From an uncultured Candidatus Peribacteria bacterium (GTDB lineage: Bacteria > Patescibacteriota > Gracilibacteria > Peribacterales > Peribacteraceae): a stretch of DNA of 64,000 nucleotides. A program made the position numbers and the translations under genes. Location of the stretch: positions 22,947 to 86,946 of the forward strand of contig CAYHOS010000001.1 in NCBI GenBank assembly GCA_964358505.1. The letters run 5' to 3'. Below are positions 104 through 25,148 of this stretch, in pieces; within the stretch, counting starts at the first letter, position 1, and every line of letters begins with the position of its first letter. The notes under the pieces are model-generated. The model saw only the letters and a list, made by a program, of their open reading frames with translations, did not search any database and was not told where the DNA came from.

Positions 104-811
104 ATGTTCTTCCAGACATCCTGGGACGACGGCTGCGCGCTGGATTTGCGCATTGCAGGGCTCCTTGAGCGCTACGGCCTCAGTGGGACCTTCTACGTCT
201 GTCCCCGGGAACAGCACGGTGCCTCGCTTCTGGAGGAACGGGACATTCGCTCGCTCGCGGAACGTCACGCGATCGGAGCGCATACGTTGACGCACCCCCG
301 CTTGACGCGGATCCCCCTCGCGGACGCCGAGCGCGAGATCCGCGGGAGCAAAGCATGGGTGGAACGCGTGACGGGGAAGCCCTGCACGAGTTTCTGCTAC
401 CCGTACGGTGACGTGAATGCCGAAGTGCGCGGACTCGTGGAACGCGCGGGATTCGCGGGCGCGCGAACCACGGAAGACTTCCGCTTTACCTCCAAAGACC
501 CCTTTCTCCAACCGGTGACGCTCCAGGTTTCCCCGTTCCCCTGGCGCAAGCGGTTCCATCCGCCGTGGAAAATCCTGGATCCTCTCGGGCCTGCGCGTCA
601 CGCCTGGACACGCACGCGCGGCTTCGATCTTCCGCTCTCAGCCTTCACCTCTTGGTCAGCCCTGGCGATGGCGTTGTTGTACCGCGCACAGCCGGATGAG
701 AAATTGTTCTTCCACCTCTACGGGCATAGCCGCGAGATCGAGCGCTACGGGATGTGGGGGGCATTGGAGACCTTCCTGGCTCACGTCGGCCGCTCCGGCA
801 AGGAAGGGTAA
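104..811 (+). CDS. polysaccharide deacetylase (NodB/CE4 homology domain)
   Basis: 235-aa ORF with 'TSWDDGC' Asp-Asp motif, 'HTLTHP' His motif and 'FCYPYG'. TAGGAT box lies 6 nt upstream of the ATG. Confidence 0.75.
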   Translation: MFFQTSWDDGCALDLRIAGLLERYGLSGTFYVCPREQHGASLLEERDIRSLAERHAIGAHTLTHPRLTRIPLADAEREIRGSKAWVERVTGKPCTSFCYPYGDVNAEVRGLVERAGFAGARTTEDFRFTSKDPFLQPVTLQVSPFPWRKRFHPPWKILDPLGPARHAWTRTRGFDLPLSAFTSWSALAMALLYRAQPDEKLFFHLYGHSREIERYGMWGALETFLAHVGRSGKEG

Positions 812-1864
812 TCACTTCAAATCTGCCCACACCACCACTTCCCCCGCGACGAGGGACTTGGTAAGGGTTTTGCCTACCACCGTGCGTGCCTCTGCGGGGG
901 CGATGCCCGTGCCTGGCCTGCGGATGGCGAGCATGTCCGCGCTCAGCATGGTTCCCGCAGGCAGGTCGCGCGCGGCGGTTACGCTGCGGCGGCTCACGGC
1001 GCGTACCTCCGCCTCGCACGGCTGGCACTTCTTCTCGCCGTCCCCCAGCACCTCGAGCGGGATGTTCACGCCCTTGAGGAACTTGGAGTCGCGGATGCGG
1101 CGGACCATTTCGGCCAGCTCATCCGGCTCCAGCGAGGCCGCGTGATCGGGCCCGACCATCGTGCGGTCGAGCGTGTAGTGCTTTTCCACGATCTGCGCGC
1201 CGTATGCCGCGGCCATCACCGTGACATTGATGCCCACCGTGTGGTCCGAGTAGCCGACGGGGACGGGGAATACGCGGCGCAGCGTGTCCATGGCCCTCAG
1301 GTTGGTCTGGTTGACGGGTGAAGGGTAGGAGCTCACGCAGTGAAGGAGCACGAAGGGGACGCGCGCTCGCTCGAAAGGTTCCACCGCTGCGCGGATCTCC
1401 TCCAGTGTCGCCTGCCCCGTGGAGAGGATGGTGGGGACGCTCAACTCCGCCATACCCTGCATGAAGGGGGTGTTGGTGATCTCGCTGGAGGGGATCTTGA
1501 TGGCCTTCACGCCCATCCCCGCCAGGAAGCGCGCCGAGGCGATGTCGAAGGGCGTAGTGATGAAATCGATGCCCCGCCTCTCGGCGTACGCCTTCAGTTC
1601 CCGGTATGCATCGTGCGGCAACGTGAGGCGACGGAGCATGGCCTTCTGGTTTTCCTCTCCGCTGCGTTCCTGGTACGGCGCCAGGGGCGCGACGTCGGAC
1701 GCAAGTTCGTCGGGATCGAAGAGTTGGAATTTGACGGCGTCGGCGCCCGCCTCCACCGCCACGTCAATGAGTTCCTGCGCCAAGCCCGGTTCGCCGTTGT
1801 GGTTCACTCCCGCTTCGGCAATCACGTACACGCCGCCGGGACGGAGGGGAAGGAGACGAGCCAT
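812..1864 (-). CDS. neuB: NeuB-family nonulosonic acid synthase (Neu/Leg-type), copy 1
   Basis: 350-aa ORF with 'VIAEAGVNHNG' and 'DAVKFQ' TIM-barrel motifs and a C-terminal SAF-like domain. Paralogous to the pseI-like gene at 25852. Confidence 0.85.
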   Translation of the reverse strand: MARLLPLRPGGVYVIAEAGVNHNGEPGLAQELIDVAVEAGADAVKFQLFDPDELASDVAPLAPYQERSGEENQKAMLRRLTLPHDAYRELKAYAERRGIDFITTPFDIASARFLAGMGVKAIKIPSSEITNTPFMQGMAELSVPTILSTGQATLEEIRAAVEPFERARVPFVLLHCVSSYPSPVNQTNLRAMDTLRRVFPVPVGYSDHTVGINVTVMAAAYGAQIVEKHYTLDRTMVGPDHAASLEPDELAEMVRRIRDSKFLKGVNIPLEVLGDGEKKCQPCEAEVRAVSRRSVTAARDLPAGTMLSADMLAIRRPGTGIAPAEARTVVGKTLTKSLVAGEVVVWADLK

Positions 1865-1922
1865 GGGGATGTCACCCTACCTCCTTGGCGACGGAGGGGC
1901 AAGAACGTATACACTGTCCCCG

Positions 1923-2696
1923 ATGAAGACGCGCATCATCCCCCGCTTGGACGTGAAGGGGCCCACCATCGTGAAAGGCATCCACATGGAAGGATTGCGC
2001 GTGATGGGCGATCCGGCTGCGCTGGCGCGGAAATACTACGAGCAAGGCGCCGACGAACTCTGTGTGATGGACACCGTCGCAAGTCTCTACGGGCGCAGCC
2101 CGGATTTCGACTTGATGCGGTCGATCGCGAACGAGCTCTTCATCCCGCTCACGATGGGCGGGGGCATCCAGTCGCTGCACGACATCACGAACTTCCTGCG
2201 CGCCGGAGCGGACAAGGTGGCAGTCAACACCAACGCCATTCACAATCCACGGCTCATACCGGAAGCGGTGCGGCAGTTCGGATCCCAGTGCATCGTGCTC
2301 TCCGTCGAAGCGAAGCGCGTCGGTCCCGGGCAACCGCCGCAGGGCGGAAATTGGGAAGCGTTCATGGAAGGCGGGCGCGAGCACTCGGGGAAGGACGCCA
2401 TTGAGTGGATCAAAGAAGCGCTGGACCTCGGCATCGGGGAAATCCTCCTGACATCGATCGATCAAGATGGCACGCGGGGCGGCTTCGATCTGGAGCTCAT
2501 CCGCGCCGTCACATCCTTCGCGACGGTGCCGGTGGTGGCGCACGGCGGTGCCCGGGACGCGGCGGCACTCCGCGAGGCGCTGGACGCCAAAGCCGACGCC
2601 GTTGCGCTCTCTTCCATCCTCCACTACAACGATACTTCCGTCGGCGCCCTCAAGCGCGAGCTGCATGCTACCGGCGTTCCCATCCGCCTCCCCTGA
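1923..2696 (+). CDS. HisF-like cyclase subunit (WbuZ type) of sugar amidotransferase complex, copy 1
   Basis: Internal ATG of ORF 1419..2696. Carries 'RIIPRLDVKG' and 'LTMGGGI' HisF signatures. Stop lies 2 nt before the next ATG. Confidence 0.85.
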   Translation: MKTRIIPRLDVKGPTIVKGIHMEGLRVMGDPAALARKYYEQGADELCVMDTVASLYGRSPDFDLMRSIANELFIPLTMGGGIQSLHDITNFLRAGADKVAVNTNAIHNPRLIPEAVRQFGSQCIVLSVEAKRVGPGQPPQGGNWEAFMEGGREHSGKDAIEWIKEALDLGIGEILLTSIDQDGTRGGFDLELIRAVTSFATVPVVAHGGARDAAALREALDAKADAVALSSILHYNDTSVGALKRELHATGVPIRLP

Positions 2697-2698
2697 CC

Positions 2699-3334
2699 AT
2701 GCCCCGCATCCTCGTTGTCGACTACGGCGTCGGAAACATGCACAGCATCCTCAAGGCGCTGCGCCGCTTCCACGAGGATGTCGCGCTGAGCGAGGATGCC
2801 GAAGAGCTGCGCGCGGCATCCGCGCTCGTTCTGCCCGGGCAGGGCGCGTTCGCCTCGGGCATGGAGGGGCTCCGCATGCGCGGCCTCCTGGATGAGGTGA
2901 AGGATGCCGCGGCAGGGGGAAAAGCTATCCTGGGCATCTGCCTGGGCGCACAGCTTCTGCTGGAGAAGGGATACGAATTCGGGGAATGGGAAGGGTTGGG
3001 GCTCCTGCCGGGGAACGTGGTGCGCTTCCCCCCGCTCCAGGACAAGGCGAAGACGCCGCACATGGGATGGAGCGCCATCGAGGAGAACGGCGCGGGCACG
3101 TGGAGGGGCACCGCGTTGGAAGGCGTCCCTTCCGGAGCAGAGATGTACTTCATCCATTCGTACATTCTCCAACCGAGTGACTCTTCGCACACCCTCTCTA
3201 CCACGCTCTACGGCGGGCTGCGTTTCCCTTCGACAATCGGGAAGGGGAAGATCATCGGATGCCAGTTCCATCCGGAGAAGAGCGCAAGGGAAGGCCTCCG
3301 TATTATCGAGAACTTCGTGCGGATGGCGCATTGA
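2699..3334 (+). CDS. HisH-like glutamine amidotransferase subunit (WbuY type), copy 1
   Basis: Internal ATG of ORF 2405..3334. Carries 'ILVVDYGVGNMHS', 'GICLGAQLL' (nucleophile Cys) and 'QFHPEKS'. Confidence 0.85.
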   Translation: MPRILVVDYGVGNMHSILKALRRFHEDVALSEDAEELRAASALVLPGQGAFASGMEGLRMRGLLDEVKDAAAGGKAILGICLGAQLLLEKGYEFGEWEGLGLLPGNVVRFPPLQDKAKTPHMGWSAIEENGAGTWRGTALEGVPSGAEMYFIHSYILQPSDSSHTLSTTLYGGLRFPSTIGKGKIIGCQFHPEKSAREGLRIIENFVRMAH

Positions 3335-3337
3335 CGG

Positions 3338-4576
3338 TCACGTCACCTGCTGCCGAAGCTTCCACTCGCTACTCACCTTCTCCCACAGGTGCGGGGAGCG
3401 CCAGCTGTCCACCACGTCGTGGAACTGCCGCTCCGTGATGTCGCAGTACTCCAGGAATTCCTTGAAGTATCTCTTGGGGAACTCCCCGTCGAACTTGCGC
3501 ACCAGCGCCACGCCCTCCTCCCGCGTGATCTTGCCGTCCCGGATCTCATGCGCCGTCTCGGACGTTGCGCGGCCGATGCCGAACTTGATGAACGCCATGT
3601 AGAAATGGAATCCGTCCAGCTTGTCGTCCAGGCTGGCGTACTTGGAGTACGTCCCCTCCGTCCGCTCCGGGTTTGCCGTGAATCCCGTGTGCTGCGTGGA
3701 GTAGTAGAAGTTCTCCTGCGGATCCCAGAATTTGTAGTAGCTGTAGAAGTGGATCTCCACCTTGGTCTTCTGGATCTCCGCGAAGGGCGGCGCGAAGTAC
3801 GGAGAGAGGTCCTCGTCCGTAGCCCCGTGCTCCTTCCAGAACGCCGGCGGCTTGCCGGAGAAGTAGTGCTTGTCCTGGTCGGTGACTTCGCGCGTGGGCT
3901 TGTAGGCGTTCTTCATGTCGCCCCCGTACTCCACTTCCCCGTTCTCCCCGTAGAAGATGAGGGGGATGTTGTACTTGACGGCAACGTGCAGCGGGAAATT
4001 GTAGACGCCGTAGATGAAAGGCTGGAAGGGGTCCGCCATGTGGATGAACGACAGCTTCGTGAGAAGGCGGCTGGAACTCTTCTTGGGCGTGAAGAGGATA
4101 TGGTTGAATCCGGACTCCACGAACCGATCCAGGTTCTGCCGCCCGATGTCTGTATAGAGAAGGGGAGACCATGTGACCGTGAGCGGATGCATGCCGTACA
4201 CCTCCTTCAGCTGGTGCGCTACGTAGGAACCGTCCTTGCCGCCGCTCCCGGGGACGAGCACGTCGAAGGTGCCATCGTTCTTGCGGTGGCGGTCGCACAG
4301 TTCCCGCAGCTCCTTCTCCCGCGCGGCCCAATCCACCTGGCGCTTGTATTCCGCGTAGCGGCAGGCACTGCAGACGCCCTCCCCGTCGAACGTGATGCGG
4401 GGCCGCTGGTTGCTGATGGTGCACCTGGCGCAGAAGCGCACGGTCTCGGGGAGGCCGTACTCAACACTGGTATTGTGTCTCTGCAATGCCAAAGACGGAA
4501 GATTGTCAGGGATGGACGTATGGTACCATACCGCCATGACGCCACAGGACAACCGCTGGAAAATCTGGGACAACAT
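3338..4576 (-). CDS. N-acetyl sugar amidotransferase (PseA/WbuX/WbpG family), copy 1
   Basis: Cys-rich N-terminal 'CARC...GVCSAC' followed by PP-loop 'SGGKDGS'. Start is ambiguous (4576, TTG 4573 or 4537). The 5' end overlaps the divergent gene at 4536. Confidence 0.8.
   Translation of the reverse strand: MLSQIFQRLSCGVMAVWYHTSIPDNLPSLALQRHNTSVEYGLPETVRFCARCTISNQRPRITFDGEGVCSACRYAEYKRQVDWAAREKELRELCDRHRKNDGTFDVLVPGSGGKDGSYVAHQLKEVYGMHPLTVTWSPLLYTDIGRQNLDRFVESGFNHILFTPKKSSSRLLTKLSFIHMADPFQPFIYGVYNFPLHVAVKYNIPLIFYGENGEVEYGGDMKNAYKPTREVTDQDKHYFSGKPPAFWKEHGATDEDLSPYFAPPFAEIQKTKVEIHFYSYYKFWDPQENFYYSTQHTGFTANPERTEGTYSKYASLDDKLDGFHFYMAFIKFGIGRATSETAHEIRDGKITREEGVALVRKFDGEFPKRYFKEFLEYCDITERQFHDVVDSWRSPHLWEKVSSEWKLRQQVT
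4524..4529 (+). promoter_or_regulatory. -10-like TGGTACCAT, 6 nt upstream of ATG 4536
   Basis: Recurrent pattern. Confidence 0.45.
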
Positions 4577-5324
4577 GAAATCCTACGGGGAAGTGCTCTA
4601 CAAGCGCGCAACCGGGGAAGCGCCGGAAATGGAGAGCAGCAAGGCGGCTGCGCGGCGCCTGCAGGGCGTGCTCAAGGAAGGGGATCGCGTGCTGGACGTG
4701 GGCTGCGGCGCCGGCCACTACCTGCGGTCGCTGCGCAACGCCTTCGCGTTCCCGTTCACGTACACCGGCATCGACGCCACACAGTCGTACGTGGCATTGG
4801 CCGCTCAAGCCTTCGCCCATGATCCCCAGGCGGACTTCAAGCATGGTGACATCGAGGCGCTGCCCGCGGAGGACCGTTCCGGGGATGTCGTCCTGTGCAT
4901 GAACGTGCTGCTCCACCTCCCCCGCATCCTCCCGGCCATGCGCGAACTCTGGCGCGTGACGGGCCGGACGCTCCTCGTCCGCACCATGGTGGGCGCGAAG
5001 AGCTTCCGCATCAAGCAGATACGCGAATGGGAAGGGGAGAGGAAGGGCCAGGAGGATCCTCTCTTCGATGCTGACGGAGAACCGCACAGGTTCCACTACT
5101 TCAACATCTACTCGGAGCAATACATCAAGTGGATCTGCTCCACGCTGCCCGGTGCGGCCTCCTGCAGTATCGTGCAGGACAAGGATTACGACCCCGCCGC
5201 CCTCACGGCAGCCGCGTGGCCGGACAAGGACAAGCCCGGCGACCTCACGCAGACGGTAGCCGGCATGCAGGTGAACGGCTCCATCATCGAACCATGGGCG
5301 TTCATCCGCGTCGATCGAGGATGA
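4536..5324 (+). CDS. class I SAM-dependent methyltransferase
   Basis: Motif I 'VLDVGCGAGHY'. TACCAT box 6 nt upstream of ATG 4536 supports this internal start of ORF 4392..5324. Confidence 0.7.
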   Translation: MTPQDNRWKIWDNMKSYGEVLYKRATGEAPEMESSKAAARRLQGVLKEGDRVLDVGCGAGHYLRSLRNAFAFPFTYTGIDATQSYVALAAQAFAHDPQADFKHGDIEALPAEDRSGDVVLCMNVLLHLPRILPAMRELWRVTGRTLLVRTMVGAKSFRIKQIREWEGERKGQEDPLFDADGEPHRFHYFNIYSEQYIKWICSTLPGAASCSIVQDKDYDPAALTAAAWPDKDKPGDLTQTVAGMQVNGSIIEPWAFIRVDRG

Positions 5325-5331
5325 GCGGGGG

Positions 5332-6924
5332 CTACCCCATGGCGAGCGCCGATTGCTTCCGTAATTCTTCCGCCTGCGGGGCGGCGAGGACGGTGCCGTT
5401 GGGTTTGACTGCCTCTTGATGGATCCGCACGATCTCCTCGCATACGCGGGCAACGTGCTCGGGGCGCAAATTCGCTGAGGAGGGGAGACTGAGGCCCGTG
5501 TCGCCCAGCCGCTCGCTCACGGGCAGATGCTGACTATTGGCGTAGATCGGCTGCTTGTGAAGCGGAGGAAAGAACGGACGCGTGTCGATGCCGCGTTCCT
5601 TGAGCAGGTCCATCAGCGCGTCACGCGAATAGCCGAAGCGTTCGGCATCGATGACGATGGAATAGAGCCAGTACACGTTACGCGCCCAGGAGGCGCAAGC
5701 CGGCAGCGTCATGCCCGGCACACCCTCGAGTCCCTGCCGGTACAGGTCGGCGATCTTCAGTTTTGCATCGATAACGTCACTGATCCGTTCCATCTGTGCC
5801 AAGCCAAGAGCCGCCTGGAGGCTCGTGAGCCGATAGTTGTACCCCAGCACCGTATGCCAGTAGCGGCGTTCCGCCGACATGCCGTGGTCGCGCAGGAGGC
5901 GCATCTTCTCCGCCATGGCATCACTGTTGGTCACGACCATTCCGCCTTCGCCCGTCGTGACGATTTTGTTGCCGTAGAAGCTGAAGATGCCGATATCGCC
6001 GATGCTCCCCACGGGTTTCCCGCCGCACAGCGCACCGTGCGCCTCCGCCGCATCTTCCACCAAGGCGACCTTGTGGCGTCGTGCGATGCCCGTGAGTGCG
6101 CCCATGTCCGCCGGATGCCCGTACAAGTGCACGGGGATGATGGCGCGTGTGCGGTGCGTGATGGCCGCTTCAGCCGCTTGGGGATCGATGGTCCAGGTGA
6201 CCGGATCGCAATCCACGAAAACGGGCGTTGCGCCGGTGTATGCGACGGCGTTGGCAGTGGCGATGAACGTGAGGGAGGGGACGAGCACCTCGTCTCCCGA
6301 GCCGATGCCCAACGCCAGCAGACCCAAGTGCAGTGCCGCCGTGCCATTGGAAACGGCTATGGCATGTTTCACACCGCAGAATCTCGCGAAGATTCCTTCA
6401 AATTTCGTCACGAAGGGGCCGGCGGAAGAAATCCATCCGCTTACCACGCATTCCGTGACGTACTGCAATTCGCGCTCCCCAACGGAAGGGGAAGCCACGG
6501 GCAGGGCGATGCGTTGATCGAACGCCGCGGCGTCCACCACCCTGCCCCGTTCATCCAGGAGCGGGATGAGGCGCACCTTCTCGTGGAAAAGGCCGGCAAT
6601 GGATTCCGGAGGATCACTGATGCGTGCGGTAACGGAATCCGGCCGCGCGACCCCCAAAACGGGAGTATCCAACCCCTGCCCCCTCAGCAGAGCCCGCCGC
6701 AAGTCCCCGTCCGTCACCAACCCTGCAAAGCGGCCGTCCGCCGCCACGAGGAAAGCGGCACCCAGGCCTGCACGATCAATGGCGCGCATTGCCTCGCGGA
6801 TCGTGCCCGAAACGGGTACGCACATGGCGCGGATCTGGTCCGGAGTGAACACGGGGGGAGTATACCCGAGAACCCCCTCAGAGGGTTTCCAGAAACCGTC
6901 GTTGCGCCAGAAGCGCCTCTCCAT
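5332..6924 (-). CDS. CBS-pair domain fused to DegT/DnrJ/EryC1 sugar aminotransferase
   Basis: N-terminal region of about 130 aa has two CBS-like repeats ('GTIREAMRAID...GLVTDGDLRRALL'). C-terminal part has 'SNGTAALH' and 'FSFYGNKIVTTGEGG' (PLP Lys). Start is 6924 or 6825. Confidence 0.8.
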   Translation of the reverse strand: MERRFWRNDGFWKPSEGVLGYTPPVFTPDQIRAMCVPVSGTIREAMRAIDRAGLGAAFLVAADGRFAGLVTDGDLRRALLRGQGLDTPVLGVARPDSVTARISDPPESIAGLFHEKVRLIPLLDERGRVVDAAAFDQRIALPVASPSVGERELQYVTECVVSGWISSAGPFVTKFEGIFARFCGVKHAIAVSNGTAALHLGLLALGIGSGDEVLVPSLTFIATANAVAYTGATPVFVDCDPVTWTIDPQAAEAAITHRTRAIIPVHLYGHPADMGALTGIARRHKVALVEDAAEAHGALCGGKPVGSIGDIGIFSFYGNKIVTTGEGGMVVTNSDAMAEKMRLLRDHGMSAERRYWHTVLGYNYRLTSLQAALGLAQMERISDVIDAKLKIADLYRQGLEGVPGMTLPACASWARNVYWLYSIVIDAERFGYSRDALMDLLKERGIDTRPFFPPLHKQPIYANSQHLPVSERLGDTGLSLPSSANLRPEHVARVCEEIVRIHQEAVKPNGTVLAAPQAEELRKQSALAMG

Positions 6925-7720
6925 TCGGGAATTTCGCCTCCATGATCCAGGGGAGACTCTGGAGAGCCGGCGTGCGGAGCACCCCGGTGATCCAGCTGCC
7001 CTCCTCCACCGGGCGGTGCTGGTCGGCGCTCCCGTCGTTGTCGTGGAGGTGGAACGCGCCGATGTACGGTGCAAGGACTGCGATGAATTCCATGCGGTTG
7101 AATCCGTAGGTCGCCGCGGAGACATTCAGGTGCCCCGTATCGACCAGGATGCCGAGGAAAGGGGAGGCGATCATTCCAAAGAATTCCTGGAACTCATCCG
7201 TGGTCTGGAGCAGGAGCGTCCCCATGTTGTGACGTTCGCACACGTTGTTCTCCACGAGCAGCCGCACCCCCGCCCGCTCCGCGAAGGGGAGAAGTCCACG
7301 GATACTTTCCACGAAACGACGCAGTGCTTCCTGCCCCGCATCCGGCCTGTCCGGCTTGGGGAAGATGAATGCCAGTGTAGGATCGGTGACGAAGCCTGCG
7401 TGGACGGAGTACAGGGGGGCGCCGAGCGCGGCGCTGAGGGAGAGAGCACGTCGGACGAGCGCCATGCTCCTCTCCCGGATGCGCGCATCCACCGACGCCA
7501 GGTTGAGGACGAAAGGTTCCGGCGGAGGCGGGAAGTAATTGTGGAGGAGATAGGGACCGGGCCCCAGCAGCTGCGACGTACATGCGCCCTCGATGGTGAC
7601 CTTGTCGCCCAACTCCACCGCTTCCATACCGAGCTCCCGGTACAGCCGCAGACGATCGGTGAGCGGCTGCGCGCCGCCCAGGCACGCGGTGGAAGCATAG
7701 ATGGAGGAATGCGGCTTCAT
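6878..7720 (-). CDS. sugar phosphate isomerase/epimerase (xylose-isomerase-like TIM barrel)
   Basis: Carries 'LLVENN' and 'HLHDNDG' metal-site motifs. ATG 7720 overlaps the upstream stop (ATGA). Confidence 0.65.
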   Translation of the reverse strand: MKPHSSIYASTACLGGAQPLTDRLRLYRELGMEAVELGDKVTIEGACTSQLLGPGPYLLHNYFPPPPEPFVLNLASVDARIRERSMALVRRALSLSAALGAPLYSVHAGFVTDPTLAFIFPKPDRPDAGQEALRRFVESIRGLLPFAERAGVRLLVENNVCERHNMGTLLLQTTDEFQEFFGMIASPFLGILVDTGHLNVSAATYGFNRMEFIAVLAPYIGAFHLHDNDGSADQHRPVEEGSWITGVLRTPALQSLPWIMEAKFPNGEALLAQRRFLETL

Positions 7721-8490
7721 CGGTGAACGGAAAGGAGACGGTCGTACTCTTCCATGCTCGGTACCGGATACTTCTTCCCCCGGAGTTCGACCATGGCCGG
7801 CGGGTAGGGCGGAAAGTCGAGCGCGCGGATGAAGCAGCTGACGCGCCCGCGGTCCCACGAGGGATCGATCCTGCCGCCATACGGCACGGCGCGCGGATGG
7901 TAACTGCCGCCGGGCGCCTGCGGCGTCCCGCGTTCTCCCCGGAGCGCCAGCGCAACGGCCTCGGGAAACACGGCGAGTCCTTCGGCGATCTGGCGGTGGA
8001 AGAGCGTGTATGCCGAATCGTCCTTGCCGATGGGGATGATGCGCTGGAGCAGGATATTCCCCTCGTCGAACTTCTCGGTCATCCAGTGGTAGGAAAAACC
8101 CGTCACGTCATCGCCCCCGAGGATCGCCCACGGGACGGAGAAGCAGCCGCGGTGCTTGGGCAGGAGCGACGGATGGAGATTGACGCACCCACCCGTGGGG
8201 ATGGCGAGGAGGTCGCCGGGGATGCGGTCGCGGTAGTGCAGGCTGAAGAGCAGCCGGGGCCGCCGTTCCTGCAGCCATTGCTTGGCAGCGGACTCCTTCG
8301 CCGCCGACTGGCAGACGCTGATGCCGTTGTCCGCCGCGCAAGCGAGGAGCGGGCGGTTGCGTTCGTCGTCGCCGTGCGTGAGGAGGCCAACCTGTTCCGG
8401 ACGGTAGCCGAGTGCGGACAGGTGGCCGATGGCGAGGATGCCGGGCGCACCGTACGCTGCGAGTATCAATGATATGGAACGGTCTGTCAT
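7717..8490 (-). CDS. formyltransferase (Fmt-like sugar N-formyltransferase candidate)
   Basis: Canonical 'NLHPSLLPKHRG' formyltransferase motif. ATGA overlap with the upstream gene at 8487-8490. Confidence 0.75.
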   Translation of the reverse strand: MTDRSISLILAAYGAPGILAIGHLSALGYRPEQVGLLTHGDDERNRPLLACAADNGISVCQSAAKESAAKQWLQERRPRLLFSLHYRDRIPGDLLAIPTGGCVNLHPSLLPKHRGCFSVPWAILGGDDVTGFSYHWMTEKFDEGNILLQRIIPIGKDDSAYTLFHRQIAEGLAVFPEAVALALRGERGTPQAPGGSYHPRAVPYGGRIDPSWDRGRVSCFIRALDFPPYPPAMVELRGKKYPVPSMEEYDRLLSVHR

Positions 8491-9200
8491 GCGGGGAGAA
8501 CGCGTAACGCGGCTTCCAAGAAAGGCATATCGTCGAGAGTGTCCAGTTCGCGGCTTCGCTCCAAAGGCGCAACGTAGCCGCGGACATCGCCGGCGAAGAG
8601 CGCGCCGTTCACGAGTGCCGAAGAGACGCGAACCGCGTCCACGAGGCCGGAGAGCATATACACCGGAGGACAGAGCTGGCGCCGGGGGAAGGAACTTTCG
8701 TCGTGGCCGGGGATGAGCGGCGTGAGCCGCCCCTCCGCATCCATCCCTTTCATCCAGTACGGGTGCTGTTCCACCGTACACACCGAACGGACGGCATCCG
8801 CGCCCGTGGAAGAGAGGAGGCCCAACGCGCCCCGAATGTCTTCCGCTGTACGGAGCGGCGACGTAGGACGGAGCCAGAGGACCACATCCGGCTTCCACTC
8901 CTCCCGTTCGGCGAACCACTCGATGGCATGTCGGAAGACGGGGAAATCGGGAGTGTCGTCTGCAGCGATGGCGGAAGGACGCAGGAACGGGACTTCGGCC
9001 CCTTCGCGACGTGCAATGTCGGCAATTTCCCCGTCATCCGTGGAGACGACGATGCGGCTGCACGCGCCGGACGCTTTGGCGACGGCAATGGTCCACGCGA
9101 TGAGCGGCTTTCCCCCCAGGGGAAGGATGTTTTTACGCGGCACACTCTTGGAACCCCCGCGGGCGGGGATGAGCGCCAGGACTGCGGAAGCGGAAGCCAT
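8487..9200 (-). CDS. neuA: acylneuraminate-type cytidylyltransferase (CMP-NulO synthetase)
   Basis: N-terminus 'ALIPARGGSKSVPRKN' is typical of the CTP_transf_3 family. TACAAT box 9 nt upstream of ATG 9200. Confidence 0.8.
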   Translation of the reverse strand: MASASAVLALIPARGGSKSVPRKNILPLGGKPLIAWTIAVAKASGACSRIVVSTDDGEIADIARREGAEVPFLRPSAIAADDTPDFPVFRHAIEWFAEREEWKPDVVLWLRPTSPLRTAEDIRGALGLLSSTGADAVRSVCTVEQHPYWMKGMDAEGRLTPLIPGHDESSFPRRQLCPPVYMLSGLVDAVRVSSALVNGALFAGDVRGYVAPLERSRELDTLDDMPFLEAALRVLPA

Positions 9201-9314: not shown

Positions 9315-10286
9315 ATGATGTGGGATGTTACCGTCATATCAACAATCTTTTCCCCTTTCTTGGCCATGAGAAGCAAATCAGTCGCCTCCGTGACACGGAA
9401 AATTTACTTCAAGCAGCACTTGAATTTCGCGAAAGACCCCGTGCTGCTGCACAGGTGCGTGAAGATGTTTTCCGATCCGACATATTTCAGCCTCACGAAG
9501 AAGGATTTCGAAGGGATACATATCCTCGACGCGGGTTCGGGGAACTCGGGATTCCTGGAAATCGCCATGATAGGCCTGGGCGCGGGTCACGTCACCTGCC
9601 TCGACATCGGCAAACAATGGATCCCCGCACTGCGCACGCTGCTCAAGAAGTACGCACCGCCGGAGAAGTTTGATTTCGTGGATGCAAGTACGGACAAGAT
9701 CCCATTTCCGGACAATCACTTCGATATGGTTTTTTCACAGGGCGTTCTCATGCACCTGAACAACATGGAACAGACCAAGCGCGCCTGGAAAGAGCTGGCC
9801 CGCGTAACGAAGAGGGGAGGGTATCTGTACGTCTCCCTCGGCAATCCGTCGGGCTTGCTGGAAGACGCAGTCATCCCCGCTGTCCGGAAGTACTACAACA
9901 CCAACAAGGAATTCAAGCACTTCATTGATACACAAAATCCGGACATGTGGAAAGGCTTCCTCAAGTCGCTCTCGGAGAGCATGCAGAAGCGCACGGGGGA
10001 ACATTTCGCGTACGAAAATATCGCCCCCCTGCTCGATTGGGATTTCTGCACCATGCTCCAGAATACGATACAGTGCCCCCATCGATACATCACGCAAACG
10101 GACCAGGACCATGTGCTCGCCATGTACAAACAGAACAAGTTCAAGCCTCCGCGGCGATGCAGGAGGTTCGTCGTGAGACACAATATCAGGAAGTTCTTCG
10201 CGCCTCTGCACTTTGGCGATGTCCCATACCTGTCCAAACTCGTGTACGGGCCGGGCTGCCTGGAATACATCGCACAGAAACGCTGA
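9315..10286 (+). CDS. class I SAM-dependent methyltransferase (low-GC gene)
   Basis: Motif I 'ILDAGSGNSGF' and 'FDMVFSQGVLMHL'. Visibly A/T-richer codon usage than its neighbours. Start is 9315, 9318 or 9366. Confidence 0.7.
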   Translation: MMWDVTVISTIFSPFLAMRSKSVASVTRKIYFKQHLNFAKDPVLLHRCVKMFSDPTYFSLTKKDFEGIHILDAGSGNSGFLEIAMIGLGAGHVTCLDIGKQWIPALRTLLKKYAPPEKFDFVDASTDKIPFPDNHFDMVFSQGVLMHLNNMEQTKRAWKELARVTKRGGYLYVSLGNPSGLLEDAVIPAVRKYYNTNKEFKHFIDTQNPDMWKGFLKSLSESMQKRTGEHFAYENIAPLLDWDFCTMLQNTIQCPHRYITQTDQDHVLAMYKQNKFKPPRRCRRFVVRHNIRKFFAPLHFGDVPYLSKLVYGPGCLEYIAQKR

Positions 10287-10305: not shown

Positions 10306-11826
10306 TTACGATATCTCCTTCCACGACGGGGCGGAAGCGACCCCTGTGATCTCATCCTGCAACGCAGCCAGTTCTTTCCCTATCGCGTTTTTCAGCGCCT
10401 TCACGTGCTCTTCCTCTGATTTGCCGGTGACAAGAAGGAACCATCGGTCCACGACACCCATCATGCACGTCTCCTCCATCGCCTTGAGGTAGAGATGCGT
10501 GCTCCAGGGCGTCGGCGCCTCCCTGCGCTCGAATACGGCGCGCACGGCCTCTGCGCAGTCCCGCGCCGTTCGGATGGGGAAGACCCCGCGGGCGTACTGG
10601 TAGAACCATGAGCCGAAGAGGAAGACCTGCTTCCCTCGGAAGAGCGCCTCGAAGCCGGCGGATCCCGTGATCGTCGCCACAGCCGTACAGCGCTCGCGAA
10701 GTATGAACGTATCCACATCTTTGGGAATGAGCCTCACCTTCTCCAGTTCCAGAAAATCCCTGTAGTACTCCGTGTTGCGGGAAAGCCATCCGCCCCGGCG
10801 CGGGTGCTCCTTGACGTAGAGAAGGACGCCATCGGGGAGCGTCGCATTGAGGAGGCGCGCCGCCAAAATCTGGTCCGCGTACACGCCCCCCAGGGGGACG
10901 GTGCTCAATTCGGGTTGGGAGTGCAGCGGGAAGTATACGAAGGGCTTCGTGAGGTCCGGGACCGATGCATGGGCATTATAGAAATGCTCCGTGCGGCGGA
11001 CGGCGCGCCATCGCTGCAGCGCTTCCCAAGCACGCGCCCACCCGGCGGGCGTGAACAGGATGCGCAGCGCAGGCAGGAAGAGGGCGAAGGGACGGTACAG
11101 GGCCAGCGTGCGCAGATGATACCCATGGGTAGGGAGGGGGATGGACATGAGCACCGGGGGCTTCCCCGCGACGGAGAGGAGATCCCGCTCGTAAGAGGCG
11201 AACGGCTCCCGCAGGGGGACGCTTTCCGGAGCGCCTGTGGGACGCTCGGCCAGGAGGACGCGGTACCGTTCGCCGATCTGCGGGGTGACATGCCGCACAT
11301 CCCTGCTTGCGCAAGCGACATCGCGCAGGGTGGTGATGTCAAAGAACAGGACGGGGATCCCGCGCTGCCTGCAGAGGTAATAGATGACGATGTCCGGGAT
11401 CTCATGCGGGGTCCAGGCGGAGAGGTACAAGTTGATCCTCCGGCGCGTGAGGTAATCGTTCCAGAACTGCAAGTGCCGCAGGTACCAGAGTTTGCGCGTG
11501 AGGTACGGGACAGCATGCTTGTCCTCCAGCCGCGTGACGACGGCCATGAACACCGCTTCACACTCCCTCATCTGCAGGATCAATTCCTCATCGAGGGGGG
11601 CGATGCCGTTCCAGTCCACGCCCGCGTAATGGGCTTTGCGGATTTCGCTGCTCGCGAAGAACTCCTGTTGCGCCGCGGGGATCCCCGCGAACGGCGGGAG
11701 TTCCCCCGTCGAGATATCCGCGCAGAACGCGAACGGATGCGCTTGCATCACCCCCTCGAGCGCCCGCCGCGTGAAGGCAAGCCCGAACCGCCCGACGATG
11801 GCACGGATGGGGATAGGAGGGGTCAC
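10306..11826 (-). CDS. KpsS/Capsule_synth-like glycosyltransferase (candidate NulO transferase), paralogue A
   Basis: 'FPLHSQPELST', 'LYVKEHP' and 'AVATITGSAGFEAL' match the KpsS layout. GTG 11826 chosen because TATACT lies 7 nt upstream and the N-terminal length then matches the paralogue. Confidence 0.6.
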   Translation of the reverse strand: MTPPIPIRAIVGRFGLAFTRRALEGVMQAHPFAFCADISTGELPPFAGIPAAQQEFFASSEIRKAHYAGVDWNGIAPLDEELILQMRECEAVFMAVVTRLEDKHAVPYLTRKLWYLRHLQFWNDYLTRRRINLYLSAWTPHEIPDIVIYYLCRQRGIPVLFFDITTLRDVACASRDVRHVTPQIGERYRVLLAERPTGAPESVPLREPFASYERDLLSVAGKPPVLMSIPLPTHGYHLRTLALYRPFALFLPALRILFTPAGWARAWEALQRWRAVRRTEHFYNAHASVPDLTKPFVYFPLHSQPELSTVPLGGVYADQILAARLLNATLPDGVLLYVKEHPRRGGWLSRNTEYYRDFLELEKVRLIPKDVDTFILRERCTAVATITGSAGFEALFRGKQVFLFGSWFYQYARGVFPIRTARDCAEAVRAVFERREAPTPWSTHLYLKAMEETCMMGVVDRWFLLVTGKSEEEHVKALKNAIGKELAALQDEITGVASAPSWKEIS

Positions 11827-11833
11827 GAGGGTG

Positions 11834-11839
11834 AGTATA
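11834..11839 (-). promoter_or_regulatory. -10-like TATACT, 7 nt upstream of GTG 11826
   Basis: Part of the recurrent TANNNT-N6-10-start pattern. Confidence 0.45.
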
Positions 11840-11914
11840 CCAAACGTCTGCGGAACAAGGCCGGAGTTTTCCCGCAGGCCACTGCAGCATCCTTGAACTG
11901 GGGGGACCAATGTG

Positions 11915-11920
11915 TATCAT
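11915..11920 (+). promoter_or_regulatory. extended -10-like TGTGTATCAT, 6 nt upstream of ATG 11927
   Basis: Recurrent TANNNT-N6-10-start pattern. Confidence 0.5.
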
Positions 11921-11926
11921 CACGCC

Positions 11927-13411
11927 ATGCGGAAGCCCAATGTGATCATCAAGGCGTTCGACGGGGACTCGACGGACGCCGTGACTCTGGAGAGGGCGTT
12001 TAGGGACATCCCGCTGGGCACCTGCATCACCATCGGGGAGGCCGTCCCGTGGGAGACGAGGATCGCCGCGGAGAAGCGCATCGAGATGCGGGCGGAGCGC
12101 GTGCGGATCTGCGAGTACCCCGGTGTGGACTGGAACGCGATATTGCCGCTCGACGAGGGGATCATCGAGGACATGCGGCATGCGGAGGCGGTGGTGATGC
12201 AGATGGTCGAGCGCTATGCGCGGTACATGGAGCGATACAGGATTGCGGGGGATATTCCGTACCATGAGCGCCGGCGGCAGTACTTCGCGCACCTGCGGTA
12301 CTGGAACCACGTGCTGGAGACGGAACGCATCGACCTCTTCCTCATGAACCACATGCCGCACCAGTGCTACGATTACGTCCTGTACTATCTCTGCAAGCGC
12401 AAGAACATTCCCGTTCTCTACATGAACCGTTTCTTCGCCATGGATGGGATGTACATTTCGGAGAATTGGGAACACCCCGCCCCTGACCTGCAGGCCGCAT
12501 TCCGGAGGATACGCGAGGAGTACGCGGATCCGCAGCGGCCGATCCCTCTCTCCAAGAATTACGAATACTACTTCTCATTCTACAGAAAGAAGACACCCGA
12601 GAAGCCGTGGTACATGGAGGAGAACATCTACACGAGGCCGAACTTCGTGCGGAAGTGGTGGCGCAAAGGCCTCAAGGTGCTTCGCAGGGAACCGCTGCGC
12701 TTCACTGCCTCCATGCTTTCCCCGGCCTTCTGGTCGCGGAAACTGGGTCAGCACCGGGCGATCGCATTCTACAAACAGCACACGCAGCAGCCCGATCTCT
12801 CCCAACCGTACGTGTACGTCCCCCTCCATCTGCAGCCGGAGGCTACCACCATCCCCCTCGCAGGGGCGTTCGTGGACCAGGAACGCGTCGTACAGCTCCT
12901 GGCCGCCCATCTCCCTCCCGGGATCCGCCTCTACGTAAAGGAGCACCCGGCGCAAGGGGAGGAATGGCGCAGCGAGGATTTCTACAAGACGCTCCTCAGC
13001 ATCCCCTCCGTCACGCTCATCCCCAAGGAAGCGGACACGTATGCGCTCCTCGACCATTGCATCGCCGTGGCTTCCTGCGCGGGCACCGTGCTCTTCGAGG
13101 CGAGCATCCGCCAGAAGCCTTCCTTCATGTTCGGCCACGACATCTGGCAGTACGGGCCGGGCGTGCACTGCATACGCACGTCCCAGGATTGCCGCGCGGC
13201 TGTGGAGGATATCCTGAACAACAGGGCATCGCACTCCGTGCGGGACGTGCGCCTCTACCTCAAAGCCTTCGACGAAAGCGCCACCCCTTTTCCCGGTCCG
13301 ACAGAAAGCCCCGTGGACAATGCCACGGATGAGGAGAAGGCGGTGAACGTGGGGGCGCTCCTCGAGCGGCATATCCGGAGGGTTTTGAATCTTCCGGCGC
13401 CGCAGTCCTGA
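11927..13411 (+). CDS. KpsS/Capsule_synth-like glycosyltransferase, paralogue B
   Basis: 'VPLHLQPEATT', 'LYVKEHP' and 'AVASCAGTVLFEA'. Alignable along its length to 10306..11826. TGTGTATCAT extended -10 lies 6 nt upstream of the ATG. Confidence 0.6.
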   Translation: MRKPNVIIKAFDGDSTDAVTLERAFRDIPLGTCITIGEAVPWETRIAAEKRIEMRAERVRICEYPGVDWNAILPLDEGIIEDMRHAEAVVMQMVERYARYMERYRIAGDIPYHERRRQYFAHLRYWNHVLETERIDLFLMNHMPHQCYDYVLYYLCKRKNIPVLYMNRFFAMDGMYISENWEHPAPDLQAAFRRIREEYADPQRPIPLSKNYEYYFSFYRKKTPEKPWYMEENIYTRPNFVRKWWRKGLKVLRREPLRFTASMLSPAFWSRKLGQHRAIAFYKQHTQQPDLSQPYVYVPLHLQPEATTIPLAGAFVDQERVVQLLAAHLPPGIRLYVKEHPAQGEEWRSEDFYKTLLSIPSVTLIPKEADTYALLDHCIAVASCAGTVLFEASIRQKPSFMFGHDIWQYGPGVHCIRTSQDCRAAVEDILNNRASHSVRDVRLYLKAFDESATPFPGPTESPVDNATDEEKAVNVGALLERHIRRVLNLPAPQS

Positions 13412-13424: not shown

Positions 13425-14735
13425 TTACGTCAGCCGCTTGAAGCCCGATTGTGCAACGGGGCCTTTGAGCTTCTCCGGGAGGGAACCGTCCTGGAGCGCG
13501 CGGGCGATGGCATCAAAAGCTTCTCCCGATGCGCCGAGGTACCCCGCCACATGTTCTTCCGTATGGGCGAACGTGGCGTAGAACTTGTCCGGGGCCAGGT
13601 ACCCTCGCTCCAGCATCAGCTGCGTGAAGAGCGTCTTGGGGGCTCCCCCCAGCGCCGAGTGGATGTGAAAGTGGGCGAGCGGCTCGATGCCCGTCACGTC
13701 CACCTTCAGGCTCGCTGCGTCCGCCGACCGCTTCCACCCTTCTTGGACCAGTCGCCCGATGCGCATCAGATGCTCATGAACCCGTGCGCGCCCGAACTTC
13801 CGGATGGTCGCCACCGCGGCCGCGGGTCCGATGCGTTCCGTCCAGTTGGTGGAACTGATGAAGGTGCTCTGCGCCGCTTCCATCACCGGGCGCCGCCCGA
13901 TGACGGCGGCGATGGGATAACCGTTGCCAAGCGCCTTGGCGAACACGGCGATGTCAGGCTCCACCCCCAGCGCCAGGTGCGCGCCGCCATGGGTGATGCG
14001 GAAACCGGACGTGACCTCGTCGAATACCAGCACGGCGCCGATGGCCGTCGCAATCTCCCGCACACGTTGAAGGAACCCGTTCTCGGGCCCGGAATCGCGC
14101 AGCGGCTCCATGACGATGGCGCCGATCTCCTTGCCATGCCCGGCGACGATGCGCTCCAGTTCCTCGATCTTGTTGTACCGGAAGGGGAGCATGGTCCCCT
14201 TGAGTCCCCGCGGCACGCCCTTCGGCTCCAGACCCGGGAGCAAGTGCCCGTCGAGCGCGCCGTCATCGGCAAGGTTCGCCGCCAGGTACCAGTCGTGCCA
14301 GCCGTGGTACCCGCAGAACGCCACTTTCTCCCGCCCCGCATACGCCCGCGCAATGCGGACGGCCATCGCCATGGCCTCCCCGCCGCCGCGCGCGAACCGC
14401 GCCATGGAAGACCAGGGATGGAGGCCGGTGAGGAGTTCCGCAAGTTCCACCTCTTCGGGACAATTCAGGGTAGAGGCCGTGCCGGCATCGATAGCCGCGC
14501 GGACAGCGGCATCCACGTCGGGGTCGGCGGCACCCAGCACGCAGGCGCCGATGGCGTTGTACCCCATGTCCACGTACCGGTTACCGTCCAGGTCCCACAC
14601 CTCCGCCCCGCGGACACGGCTGTAGTATGCGGGCCATTGGTCGGGCAGGTGGAGTTCCGGCCTCTTCGAGAGGAGCTGCGTCCCCCCGGGAATGAGGGTT
14701 TTTGCCTTGCGGTAAAGATCTTGGCCTTTCCCCAT
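13425..14735 (-). CDS. class III aminotransferase (glutamate-1-semialdehyde 2,1-aminomutase-like)
   Basis: 436-aa ORF with 'LIPGGTQLLSKR' and 'FDEVTSGFR', the HemL-family layout. TACAAT box 9 nt upstream. Confidence 0.75.
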   Translation of the reverse strand: MGKGQDLYRKAKTLIPGGTQLLSKRPELHLPDQWPAYYSRVRGAEVWDLDGNRYVDMGYNAIGACVLGAADPDVDAAVRAAIDAGTASTLNCPEEVELAELLTGLHPWSSMARFARGGGEAMAMAVRIARAYAGREKVAFCGYHGWHDWYLAANLADDGALDGHLLPGLEPKGVPRGLKGTMLPFRYNKIEELERIVAGHGKEIGAIVMEPLRDSGPENGFLQRVREIATAIGAVLVFDEVTSGFRITHGGAHLALGVEPDIAVFAKALGNGYPIAAVIGRRPVMEAAQSTFISSTNWTERIGPAAAVATIRKFGRARVHEHLMRIGRLVQEGWKRSADAASLKVDVTGIEPLAHFHIHSALGGAPKTLFTQLMLERGYLAPDKFYATFAHTEEHVAGYLGASGEAFDAIARALQDGSLPEKLKGPVAQSGFKRLT

Positions 14736-25139: not shown

Positions 25140-25148
25140 GGGAAGACC

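Follow-up and report, generated by a model that had tools for sequence, protein, structure and literature searches.

The surface glycans of bacteria and archaea are capped by nonulosonic acids, which control how phages, hosts, and other cells recognize the bearer. In Campylobacter jejuni, where CMP-legionaminic acid is made by LegB, LegC, LegH, LegG, LegI, and LegF, the legionaminic 5-N-acetyl group is tailored by the amidotransferase PtmG and the methyltransferase PtmH (bioRxiv 10.64898/2026.04.20.719630); amidino and N-methyl tailoring of nonulosonates is thus known from Campylobacter together with LegB-, LegC-, and LegG-type sets. Formylated products have been described for Halorubrum sp. 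PV6, which has 5-N-formyl-legionaminic acid (PMC6137143), and for "Candidatus Kuenenia stuttgartiensis," which has formylated, free-amine, and O-methyl CMP-linked nonulosonic acids (bioRxiv 10.64898/2026.04.20.719630), and neither of the two reports mentions a TIM-barrel gene. In the KL1/KL2 capsules of Serratia marcescens, a 747-aa NeuB with an additional COG1082 domain (sugar phosphate isomerase/epimerase), together with NeuA, is required for mannose-derived ketodeoxynononic acid (KDN) without NeuC (PMC9000132). Finally, GDP-N-formyl- or GDP-N-acetylperosamine is produced by Gmd, Per, and WbkC in Brucella and with PerB in Caulobacter, and in this known pathway the GDP-sugar goes straight to glycosyltransferases. 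Here, we analyzed a stretch of 64,000 nucleotides (the window) from contig CAYHOS010000001.1 of an uncultured Candidatus Peribacteria bacterium, in which positions 104 to 9200 hold a nonulosonic acid module. We propose that this module encodes a second, NeuC-independent pathway leading from GDP-mannose via GDP-N-formylperosamine to CMP-7-formamido-3,7,9-trideoxy-nonulosonate, a reading predicted from sequence for which we judge the chances to be about even.

Open reading frames (ORFs) of the window, which has a G+C content of 64%, were chosen with guidance from the G+C content of third codon positions (GC3) and by scans with Pfam and NCBIfam models. The genes that a preliminary description had named between 104 and 9200 proved to be real and to lie at or very near the positions assigned to them. 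Four genes on the minus strand form the core of the module: a CMP-nonulosonate synthetase or cytidylyltransferase (CT; 8487-9200; CTP_transf_3 PF02348, E = 3.9e-19, 69.8 bits), a WbkC-like sugar N-formyltransferase (FT; 7717-8490), a xylose-isomerase-like TIM-barrel protein (TIM; 6878-7720; AP_endonuc_2 PF01261, 106.3 bits against a cutoff of 31.1), and an aminotransferase of the GDP-perosamine synthase/LegC type with CBS and DegT domains (AT; 5332-6852/6924; DegT, E = 1e-133; CBS, 35 bits against a cutoff of 24). A NeuB-family nonulosonate synthase with an SAF domain is encoded at 812-1864, likewise on the minus strand (Pfam NeuB, E = 8e-85; PF03102, 284.6 bits, cutoff 22.1; SAF PF08666, 52.8 bits, cutoff 21). 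CT and FT (8487-8490) as well as FT and TIM (7717-7720) are joined by 4-nt ATGA overlaps, as had been described; the third junction, also thought to overlap, depends on the start of AT, with a 47-nt overlap if translation begins at ATG 6924 and a 25-nt gap if it begins at GTG 6852. The N terminus of the closest AT homolog (locus L086, 78% identical) aligns at GTG 6852, which is probably the true start. The codirectional run from 9200 to 5332 holds and is limited to CT, FT, TIM, and AT; between 812 and ~7000 the strands alternate with almost every gene. The order there is NeuB (minus), HisF/HisH (plus), WbuX (minus), methyltransferase (plus), and AT (minus), with convergent or divergent gaps of ~3 to 60 bp, and this alternating layout is kept in three relatives (L002, L003, and L086).

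Like the C. jejuni legionaminic acid pathway, the module would use GDP-linked 4-keto-6-deoxy sugar chemistry, and it combines a LegC/Per-type aminotransferase, a NeuB-type synthase, and a CMP-synthetase with tailoring by a WbuX/PseA-type amidotransferase and a methyltransferase (PtmG/PtmH in C. jejuni). Unlike that pathway, it is devoid of LegB, LegG/NeuC, and a glucosamine-1-phosphate guanylyltransferase set, it has a WbkC-like FT instead of an acetyltransferase, its AT carries an N-terminal CBS domain and scores below the LegC cutoff, and TIM is an obligatory extra. With Halorubrum and Ca. Kuenenia it shares a formyltransferase inside a NeuB/cytidylyltransferase cluster (in Ca. Kuenenia also a deacetylase and methylation), whereas the clusters of these organisms retain LegB, LegC, and LegG/NeuC homologs that lead to 5,7-diamino sugars.

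To place the core in a wider context, GTDB species genomes were scanned with a TIM profile and 80 loci (L numbers) were fetched. TIM was found in 74 of these, NeuB in 72, AT in 70, and CT in 55, and 72 of the 74 TIM genes were linked to NeuB. The usual order was (CT)-NeuB-X-TIM-AT-(CT), mostly contiguous and codirectional with overlapping or nearly abutting genes. Loci of this kind occurred in Peregrinibacteria, Chloroflexota, Planctomycetota, Verrucomicrobiota, Desulfuromonadales/Geobacter, Bacteroidota, Pelagibacteraceae, Nitrospira, Alphaproteobacteria, and archaea; carriers in culture include Geobacter sp. AOG1 (L027), Aurantiacibacter sp. D1-12 (L019), and Algimonas arctica (L029). Among the 45 loci in which the slot X before TIM was examined, 21 had a GNAT protein, 16 a PglD/hexapeptide protein, and 6, including the window, a Formyl_trans_N protein; the slot is thus predicted to hold an N-acyltransferase drawn interchangeably from three unrelated folds. 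Since formyltransferases account for just 6 of the 45, the window represents a minority N-formyl version. In the closest relative (L086), CT is fused to a GNAT domain and FT is missing. Going beyond the preliminary description, the gene set is thus not idiosyncratic, but a member of a widespread cassette, the chemistry of which looks GDP-perosamine-like. The idea, raised there as a caveat, that the extra genes act on unrelated sugars is countered by the co-occurrence of TIM, AT, acyltransferase, NeuB, and CT in ~70 of the 80 loci, together with fusions of TIM to its neighbors. A smaller subtype of the cassette (L024, L033, L052, L053, L071, and L075) has another short-chain dehydrogenase/reductase (SDR) and a more distant AT, and the cassette of L058 has a PseB-like dehydratase. 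In many, mostly verrucomicrobial, cassettes a second, very distant NeuB-like gene (24 to 31% identity) follows CT, ~3 to 4 kb downstream of TIM (L017, L026, L035, L036, L041, L042, L057, L061, and L062); in L017 it is preceded by a conserved 316-aa ORF, whose family is present in six loci.

AT found its best match in the PDB in the Caulobacter perosamine synthetase (3BN1/3DR4) with 376 bits, compared to 306 for the runner-up, 183 for PglE, and 141 for PseC. Its best NCBIfam match was the LegC model TIGR04181, at 368.1 bits under the cutoff of 420; with the same model, 335 to 379 bits were reached by nine further ATs from cassettes, Gmd-linked ones included. AT was 50 to 55% identical to Gmd-linked cassette ATs versus 37 to 41% to the canonical-cluster aminotransferases of relatives. 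Its closest characterized relative thus appears to be GDP-perosamine synthase, and its substrate specificity is a prediction. FT matched Brucella WbkC (PDB 5VYS), a GDP-perosamine N-formyltransferase, with 199 bits (E = 7e-58) over residues 8-253 of 257 (246 residues), i.e., at full length including the C-terminal domain, with ArnA as runner-up at 71 bits. It contains the HxSLLPxxRG N10-formyltetrahydrofolate motif as NLHPSLLPKHRG and is predicted to be a formyltransferase of the WbkC-type family. For CT, the best PDB matches were CMP-Neu5Ac synthetases (e.g., 6IFD, 126 bits), and the best NCBIfam match was the PseF model TIGR03584 (139.7 bits, under the cutoff of 205.7). As in the pathway to GDP-N-formyl- or GDP-N-acetylperosamine, AT and FT have Per and WbkC as nearest PDB relatives, Gmd is present in eight cassettes and near the window, and PglD/PerB-like acyltransferases are present in 16 loci; the CT-FT-TIM-AT core would belong to a cassette acting on GDP-linked, manno-configured sugars. 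In contrast to the known perosamine pathway, the cassette genes are operonic with NeuB, TIM, and a CMP-synthetase, and these operons and the fusions imply that the GDP-sugar is first dismantled and its sugar then lengthened to an acid of nine carbons.

TIM shares the xylose-isomerase-like TIM fold with endonuclease IV (Nfo) and with MJ1311 of Methanocaldococcus jannaschii (PDB 3WQO), which was its top match in both sequence and structure. The AlphaFold model of TIM had a predicted local distance difference test score (pLDDT) of 95.2, and Foldseek listed MJ1311 first, followed by Nfo and ketose/sugar 3-epimerases at similar scores (E = 1e-12 to 1e-10). By hhalign, TIM aligned to E. coli Nfo with 95.5% probability (E = 1.5e-8). 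The nine zinc ligands of Nfo are H69, H109, E145, D179, H182, H216, D229, H231, and E261 of the E. coli protein, and the MG1655 sequence does have these residues where expected. Eight of the nine positions are occupied by H107, E157, D194, H197, H224, D233, H235, and E261 of TIM, and seven of these eight are at least 97% conserved in 75 NeuB-linked TIMs; an HNYFP motif located 7 residues upstream of the position equivalent to Nfo H69 is invariant in the same set. The E-D-H-E single-metal site of epimerases is present in TIM as a subset of the aligned Nfo ligands, and a ligand set exceeding this four-ligand site suggests a phosphoesterase. NCBIfam epimerase models all scored 19 to 26 bits against cutoffs of 200 to 317. 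TIM is just 15 to 22% identical to Nfo and MJ1311, it has no DNA-binding context, and its substrate is presumably a nucleotide sugar. Natural fusions comprised NeuB-TIM (P0163, 652 aa), GNAT-TIM (P0367, P0387, and others, ~440 aa), and TIM-DegT (P0465, 675 aa). The NeuB-TIM fusion departs from the putative metal ligands at several positions (D194 replaced by N and H224 by E). More than 1400 TIM homologs were found in a set of 5.8 billion proteins, and at E ≤ 1e-30 the family comprises 825 clusters at 50% identity. The Serratia system resembles the window module in the coupling of NeuB to a TIM domain, in a manno-configured precursor that is not N-acetylated, and in the lack of NeuC, a likeness drawn from the domain description; it differs in having no aminotransferase, acyltransferase, or dehydratase, so that its product keeps the hydroxyl groups at C7 and C9. 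By analogy, a role as GDP-sugar or GDP-mannose hydrolase would explain both the Serratia COG1082 domain and TIM.

The preliminary description had seen neither a 4,6-dehydratase nor a NeuC-type 2-epimerase for this module in the window and had pointed to the DNA upstream of position 1. Its first observation stands, as Epimerase_2 and Gmd are absent from the 64 kb. The upstream DNA was taken from an identical contig of a Hainich groundwater metagenome (L001), which extends 9 kb past the window start. Beyond the NodB gene, L001 encodes heptose-activation genes, a GT9 heptosyltransferase, a methyltransferase, and a TviB-like NDP-sugar dehydrogenase, followed by a true Gmd (TIGR01472, 519.5 bits, cutoff 415), an uncharacterized protein, and another methyltransferase. 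This Gmd gene lies behind the heptose genes, ~6 kb before the window begins and ~7.6 kb from NeuB. The 9 kb of L001 contain no 2-epimerase and no LegB, which rules out a standard leg/neu set in the upstream DNA. Epimerase_2 (NeuC/WecB) had no match in the window, L001, or L086 by phmmer or by tblastn with WecB, and no protein scanned in the window or L001 matched LegB (TIGR04180) at the level of that family. The SDRs found were PseB (471 bits), an RmlB-like protein at 54 kb, an Epimerase-family gene at 43.6 kb, and the Gmd of L001. Across the survey, Epimerase_2 was present in 6 of the 80 cassette loci, and in the loci checked it forms part of a distinct, second NeuB set; relatives with canonical clusters (L091, L092, and L093) do have Epimerase_2. 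In cassettes with an AT of the window type, the embedded 4,6-dehydratase is true Gmd, which was found in eight loci (TIGR01472, 490 to 596 bits). The orders include CT-Gmd-NeuB-X-TIM-AT (L021), NeuB-X-TIM-AT-Gmd-CT (L077 and L079), and TIM-Gmd-AT (L065), and in L043 the order Gmd-NeuB-FT-TIM-AT combines Gmd with an FT-type cassette as in the window.

Classification on subfamily profiles separated the two synthases of the window. NeuB (812-1864) reached 381.9 bits with NeuB_NnaB (TIGR03569), just under the cutoff of 399.65, and 235.4 bits with the PseI model (TIGR03586), under the cutoff of 340.25; the second synthase (~25.9-26.9 kb) is a true PseI with 438.3 bits, versus 272 with NeuB_NnaB. 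The two proteins are 35% identical, and NeuB is about equidistant from the solved NeuB, SpsE, and PseI structures (146 to 179 bits). A simple duplicate of PseI is ruled out by these subfamily scores and by marker residues, since the two synthases score to different subfamilies, and the view of the preliminary description that the organism appears to make two different CMP-nonulosonates is supported. The position aligned to G133 of Nm-NeuB, which one paper proposes to determine C2 specificity (PMC7371886), is occupied by Ser in the window NeuB (KIPSSE) and by Phe in PseI (KVSSFE), whereas NeuB homologs of NeuC-containing Leg-type clusters (58 to 60% identity) have the motif KIPSGE with Gly. Gly is found at this position in 104 of the 120 nearest homologs and in the NeuC-linked relatives, Ser in the window NeuB, L086, and P0123, and residues other than Gly in 43 of 55 TIM-adjacent NeuBs, so that the Ser fits, weakly, an altered C2 substituent.

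NeuB itself points to a different origin than the core. It is 36 to 46% identical to cassette-type NeuBs and 58 to 75% identical to NeuBs of Peribacteraceae, a NeuB with 98% identity is assigned to a Patescibacteria group bacterium, and the orthologs of 58 to 60% identity in Peregrinibacteria (L091 and L092) lie inside canonical Leg-type clusters with the order HisF/HisH, NeuB, NeuC, PglD-like, DegT, and PglF/PseB-like SDR. These clusters are followed by the same heptose/GT9/dehydrogenase flank as in L001. In the window lineage the block from NeuC to the SDR is gone, and the NodB gene alone occupies the site where relatives, judged from the layout of L092, have NeuC-LegH-LegC-LegB. On the other side lies the CT-FT-TIM-AT core without a NeuB of its own, and L002 retains a cassette-type NeuB. 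By sequence, the window NeuB is thus assigned to the canonical legionaminic LegI/NeuB-type lineage, and because it stems from there the module is a hybrid, in which a LegI-lineage NeuB and genes for amidine and methyl tailoring (HisF, HisH, WbuX, and the methyltransferase MT1) were joined to the core. A Leg-type module is thus shown to be exchanged piecewise among relatives.

The tailoring genes lie between NeuB and AT and beyond NeuB. A WbuX/PseA-type N-acyl-sugar amidotransferase is encoded on the minus strand at 3338-4537/4576, with a start probably at 4537 (TIGR03573, 354.1 bits, cutoff 203.2), next to a HisH-type glutaminase subunit (2699-3334, plus strand; TIGR01855, 182 bits, cutoff 105.4) and a HisF/WbuZ-like cyclase subunit (1923-2696, plus strand; His_biosynth, E = 1e-61, 208 bits). 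The HisF-like protein scored 263.9 bits with TIGR00735 and 249.5 bits with WbuZ TIGR03572 (cutoff 299.7), both under the cutoffs. With WbuX, HisH, and the HisF-like partner as neighbors, the three correspond to a WbuX/WbuY/WbuZ-type acetamidino-forming system. The S-adenosylmethionine-dependent methyltransferase MT1 (~4575-5324, plus strand; Methyltransf_11 and Methyltransf_25, E = ~2e-17) adjoins AT in L002, L003, and L086 too, and the NodB-type polysaccharide deacetylase (104-811, plus strand; Polysacc_deac_1 PF01522, E = 5.6e-17, 62.3 bits, cutoff 23.1) is a candidate de-N-acylase. Judged by enzyme family, N-formylation, amidine formation, and methylation of the product, as put forward previously, are plausible.

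Combined, these elements suggest the following route. Gmd, whose gene is observed upstream and would feed the module, would convert GDP-mannose to GDP-4-keto-6-deoxy-mannose, from which the CBS-aminotransferase, by homology, would make GDP-perosamine or a close analog, and the WbkC-like FT would formylate the 4-amino group. TIM, as an endonuclease-IV-like metallo-phosphoesterase, would then remove GDP to yield free 4-formamido-4,6-dideoxy-D-mannose. This step is assigned to TIM because no other cassette gene is a candidate for freeing the aldose, and the ligand pattern and the fusions are in line with it. NeuB would condense the aldose with phosphoenolpyruvate to 7-formamido-3,7,9-trideoxy-D-glycero-D-galacto-non-2-ulosonic acid, in which the 5-OH is kept, and CT would convert this nonulosonate to the CMP-sugar. 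Thereafter, WbuX/HisH/HisF, MT1, and NodB may edit the N-acyl group to an amidine, an N-methyl form, or a free amine, and a KpsS/KpsC-like Capsule_synth protein (10306-11910, minus strand; PF05159, E = 4.8e-10), a candidate CMP-sugar transferase whose gene also adjoins the cassette in L003 and L086, would place the sugar in a surface glycan. No 2-epimerase would be required, since perosamine is already manno-configured, and the systematic absence of NeuC from the cassettes would thereby be explained. Provided that TIM removes GDP, six cassette genes would make up a complete path from GDP-mannose to the CMP-sugar. More generally, and with somewhat less than even confidence, we propose that the cassette of Gmd, Per-like AT, N-acyltransferase, TIM, NeuB, and CT is a pathway, not described before and complete in itself, by which GDP-mannose is converted to a new nonulosonic acid class ("7-amino-7,9-dideoxy-Kdn," i.e., 7-acylamino-3,7,9-trideoxy with a 5-OH) in hundreds of uncultured lineages (candidate phyla radiation [CPR] bacteria, Chloroflexota, Verrucomicrobiota, SAR11, and archaea), with TIM as a new nucleotide-sugar hydrolase replacing NeuC, LegG, or PseG and the window as an N-formyl or formamidino variant.

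Several observations weigh against the route from GDP-mannose. The lineage of the window NeuB normally works, to judge from its relatives, on a 2-acetamido sugar; WbuX-type enzymes are known to act on N-acetyl groups, and a 5-OH, 7-N-formyl sugar would offer none to the amidotransferase. LegC, which uses GDP-GlcNAc-derived substrates, is likewise closely related to AT (368 bits on its model). Gmd linkage is weak, with Gmd within 10 kb in just 8 of the 80 loci, and a 74%-identical Gmd lies in the same island of L092; since that island has a canonical Leg set, the linkage of the L001 Gmd to the module is not specific. With the two findings taken together, the L001 Gmd was dropped as strong module-specific evidence. 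Some cassettes have PseB-like or other SDRs rather than Gmd, and because the subtypes carry different SDRs, TIM is not bound to one nucleotide sugar. The fold search ranked sugar 3-epimerases about equal to endonuclease IV; Nfo H69 is replaced or not conserved in register in the TIMs, and at the position of H235 (Nfo H231) His is present in 33 and Asn in 42 of the 75 proteins. Lastly, the hybrid relative L003 retains Gly at the G133 position, which makes this residue an imperfect marker of hybrid modules. Many of the same genes would be used differently if the product were of the Leg type, that is, a 5,7-diamino sugar (Leg5Ac7Fo, later Leg5Am7Fo or an N-methyl form). AT would then act as a LegC-type enzyme on NDP-4-keto-6-deoxy-GlcNAc, FT would stand in for LegH and TIM for NeuC/LegG with or without 2-epimerization, and NeuB would perform its ancestral reaction. 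Such a product, which we regard as unlikely on balance, draws on the Peregrinibacteria NeuC-PglD-DegT-SDR clusters, where the NeuB orthologs (58 to 60%) have the same flanks, and it would give the retained WbuX/HisH/HisF and methyltransferase a 5-N-acetyl substrate; the window NeuB, however, has Ser in place of the Gly of Neu/Leg enzymes. The LegC family is the best NCBIfam match of AT (368 bits), but AT stays under the LegC cutoff just like the Gmd-linked ATs, to which it is also more similar (50 to 55%) than to the canonical-cluster aminotransferases (37 to 41%). N-formyl legionaminic acids do exist in Halorubrum (PMC6137143) and Ca. Kuenenia (bioRxiv 10.64898/2026.04.20.719630), whereas the full-length WbkC homology of FT points to GDP-perosamine. 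Some TIM cassettes, such as that of L058, carry a PseB-like dehydratase; near the window module and in L001 there is neither a LegB-type dehydratase nor a set of genes for GDP-GlcNAc supply, and the sole nucleotidyltransferase found (55071-55925) is RmlA-like and paired with the RmlB-like SDR. TIM, moreover, would have to epimerize as well, because pure hydrolysis of a gluco-configured precursor gives the wrong C5 configuration.

The match of AT and FT to perosamine enzymes would also be expected if the two made GDP-N-formylperosamine as a separate polysaccharide unit, as in the Brucella O-antigen, with TIM acting on another sugar and NeuB and CT drawing their substrate from elsewhere, e.g., from pseudaminic acid (Pse) intermediates. 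The island is rich in glycosyltransferases and holds several sugar pathways, and five alternating-strand genes separate NeuB from the CT-FT-TIM-AT operon. Nevertheless, CT is translationally coupled to FT and TIM through the ATGA overlaps, most loci place NeuB directly between CT or Gmd and the acyltransferase-TIM-AT genes, NeuB-TIM, GNAT-TIM, and TIM-DegT fusions are known, and neither the window nor L001 has a further gene, such as NeuC or a second PseG, that could supply NeuB with its substrate; we therefore consider separate products improbable. Still less credible, and in our judgment almost negligible, is that NeuB and CT of 812-9200 are redundant copies for the Pse pathway. The distance to the Pse set is only 5.6 kb and PseF is the best NCBIfam match of CT, but this match is under the cutoff (139.7 versus 205.7 bits), NeuB scored 235 bits with PseI (cutoff 340) compared to 382 with NeuB_NnaB and has no PseI-marking Phe (KIPSSE versus KVSSFE), and the Pse operon already has a genuine PseI (438 bits) as well as a cytidylyltransferase of its own. 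NeuB and PseI are only 35% identical, and the two cytidylyltransferases do not resemble each other significantly (26% over 119 residues, E = 0.005).

In the literature covered, with subscription journals mostly outside the search, no account was found of the cassette, of a perosamine-to-nonulosonate route, of the predicted product, or of a function of NeuB-linked TIM, and the only trideoxy nonulosonate found was the 5-amino fusaminic-type sugar of Fusobacterium. Genome surveys seek Neu, Leg, or Pse gene sets, and the cassette would therefore be miscalled as a synthase for legionaminate or neuraminate next to genes taken to be unrelated. If the proposed route from GDP-mannose is true, mono-amino trideoxy nonulosonates are being overlooked as an entire class in environmental and CPR organisms, TIM represents a new enzymatic means of nucleotide removal, and the TIM domain that clinical Serratia marcescens has fused to its KDN synthase gains a testable function.

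Next to the module, between it and the Pse genes, two further genes were noted. A class-III aminotransferase resembling GSA (glutamate-1-semialdehyde) aminomutase is encoded at 13425-14735 (minus strand; Aminotran_3, E = 2.5e-37). Homologs with 53 to 61% identity lie beside TIM cassettes in L015, L016, L051, L068, and L081, which represent several phyla and an archaeon, and the gene is thus a recurrent accessory of TIM cassettes. A methyltransferase gene at 9366-10286 (plus strand) has a G+C content of 53.7%, compared to 64% for the surrounding module, and may have been acquired recently.

The complete Pse set with its own synthase and cytidylyltransferase, reported previously as lying 6 kb from the module, was confirmed at 14.8-26.9 kb, 5.6 kb off. 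It comprises PseB (14833-15804; 471 bits, cutoff 408), PseC (19083-20291; 440 bits, cutoff 423), a cytidylyltransferase (21170-22057), a PseG-PseH fusion (22054-23544), and PseI (ending at 26940; 438.3 bits, cutoff 340.25), and the region also has a GNAT protein and an oxidoreductase of the GFO family. Between GNAT and PseC lies a second WbuX/HisH/HisF triad (16396-19072, plus strand), which is merely 26 to 41% identical to the triad at 1923-4576. Since the two amidotransferase triads are separate, both nonulosonates are probably made amidino by distinct enzyme sets. PseI is preceded by a small formyltransferase-like ORF (23541-24239), an opposite-strand methyltransferase (24243-25160), and a PIG-L/LmbE deacetylase (25178-25855), which suggests that the Pse sugar, too, loses an N-acetyl group or gains a formyl or methyl group.

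Glycan biosynthesis takes up nearly all of the window. In this CPR bacterium, whose relatives have genomes of ~1.4 Mb, genes for surface glycans occupy more than 64 kb, and two nonulosonate pathways are predicted among them. The RmlB-like SDR (54040-55086, minus strand), the sole other 4,6-dehydratase-like gene of the window, is divergent from the RmlA-like NTP_transferase gene (55071-55925, plus strand), and the pair probably constitutes a dTDP-6-deoxyhexose branch of the island. Four ORFs with coding-like GC3 had no Pfam match at E ≤ 1e-5: 44942-47470 (minus, 842 aa), 59467-62658 (minus, 1063 aa), 32053-33750 (minus, 565 aa), and 11912-13411 (plus, 499 aa). Amid glycosyltransferases and a flippase-like gene, a protein resembling the beta subunit of F420 hydrogenase/dehydrogenase (34987-36654, plus strand), with N- and C-terminal FrhB_FdhB domains, is an unusual neighbor for a glycan island. 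Near the end of the window, a SufS cysteine desulfurase (62379-63629, plus strand) shares 85% identity with a protein of Candidatus Peribacteraceae, which together with the 98%-identical Patescibacteria NeuB indicates that the window comes from a Peribacteraceae (CPR) bacterium, apparently of Hainich groundwater. The closest homolog of SufS is located on a 1.38-Mb contig.

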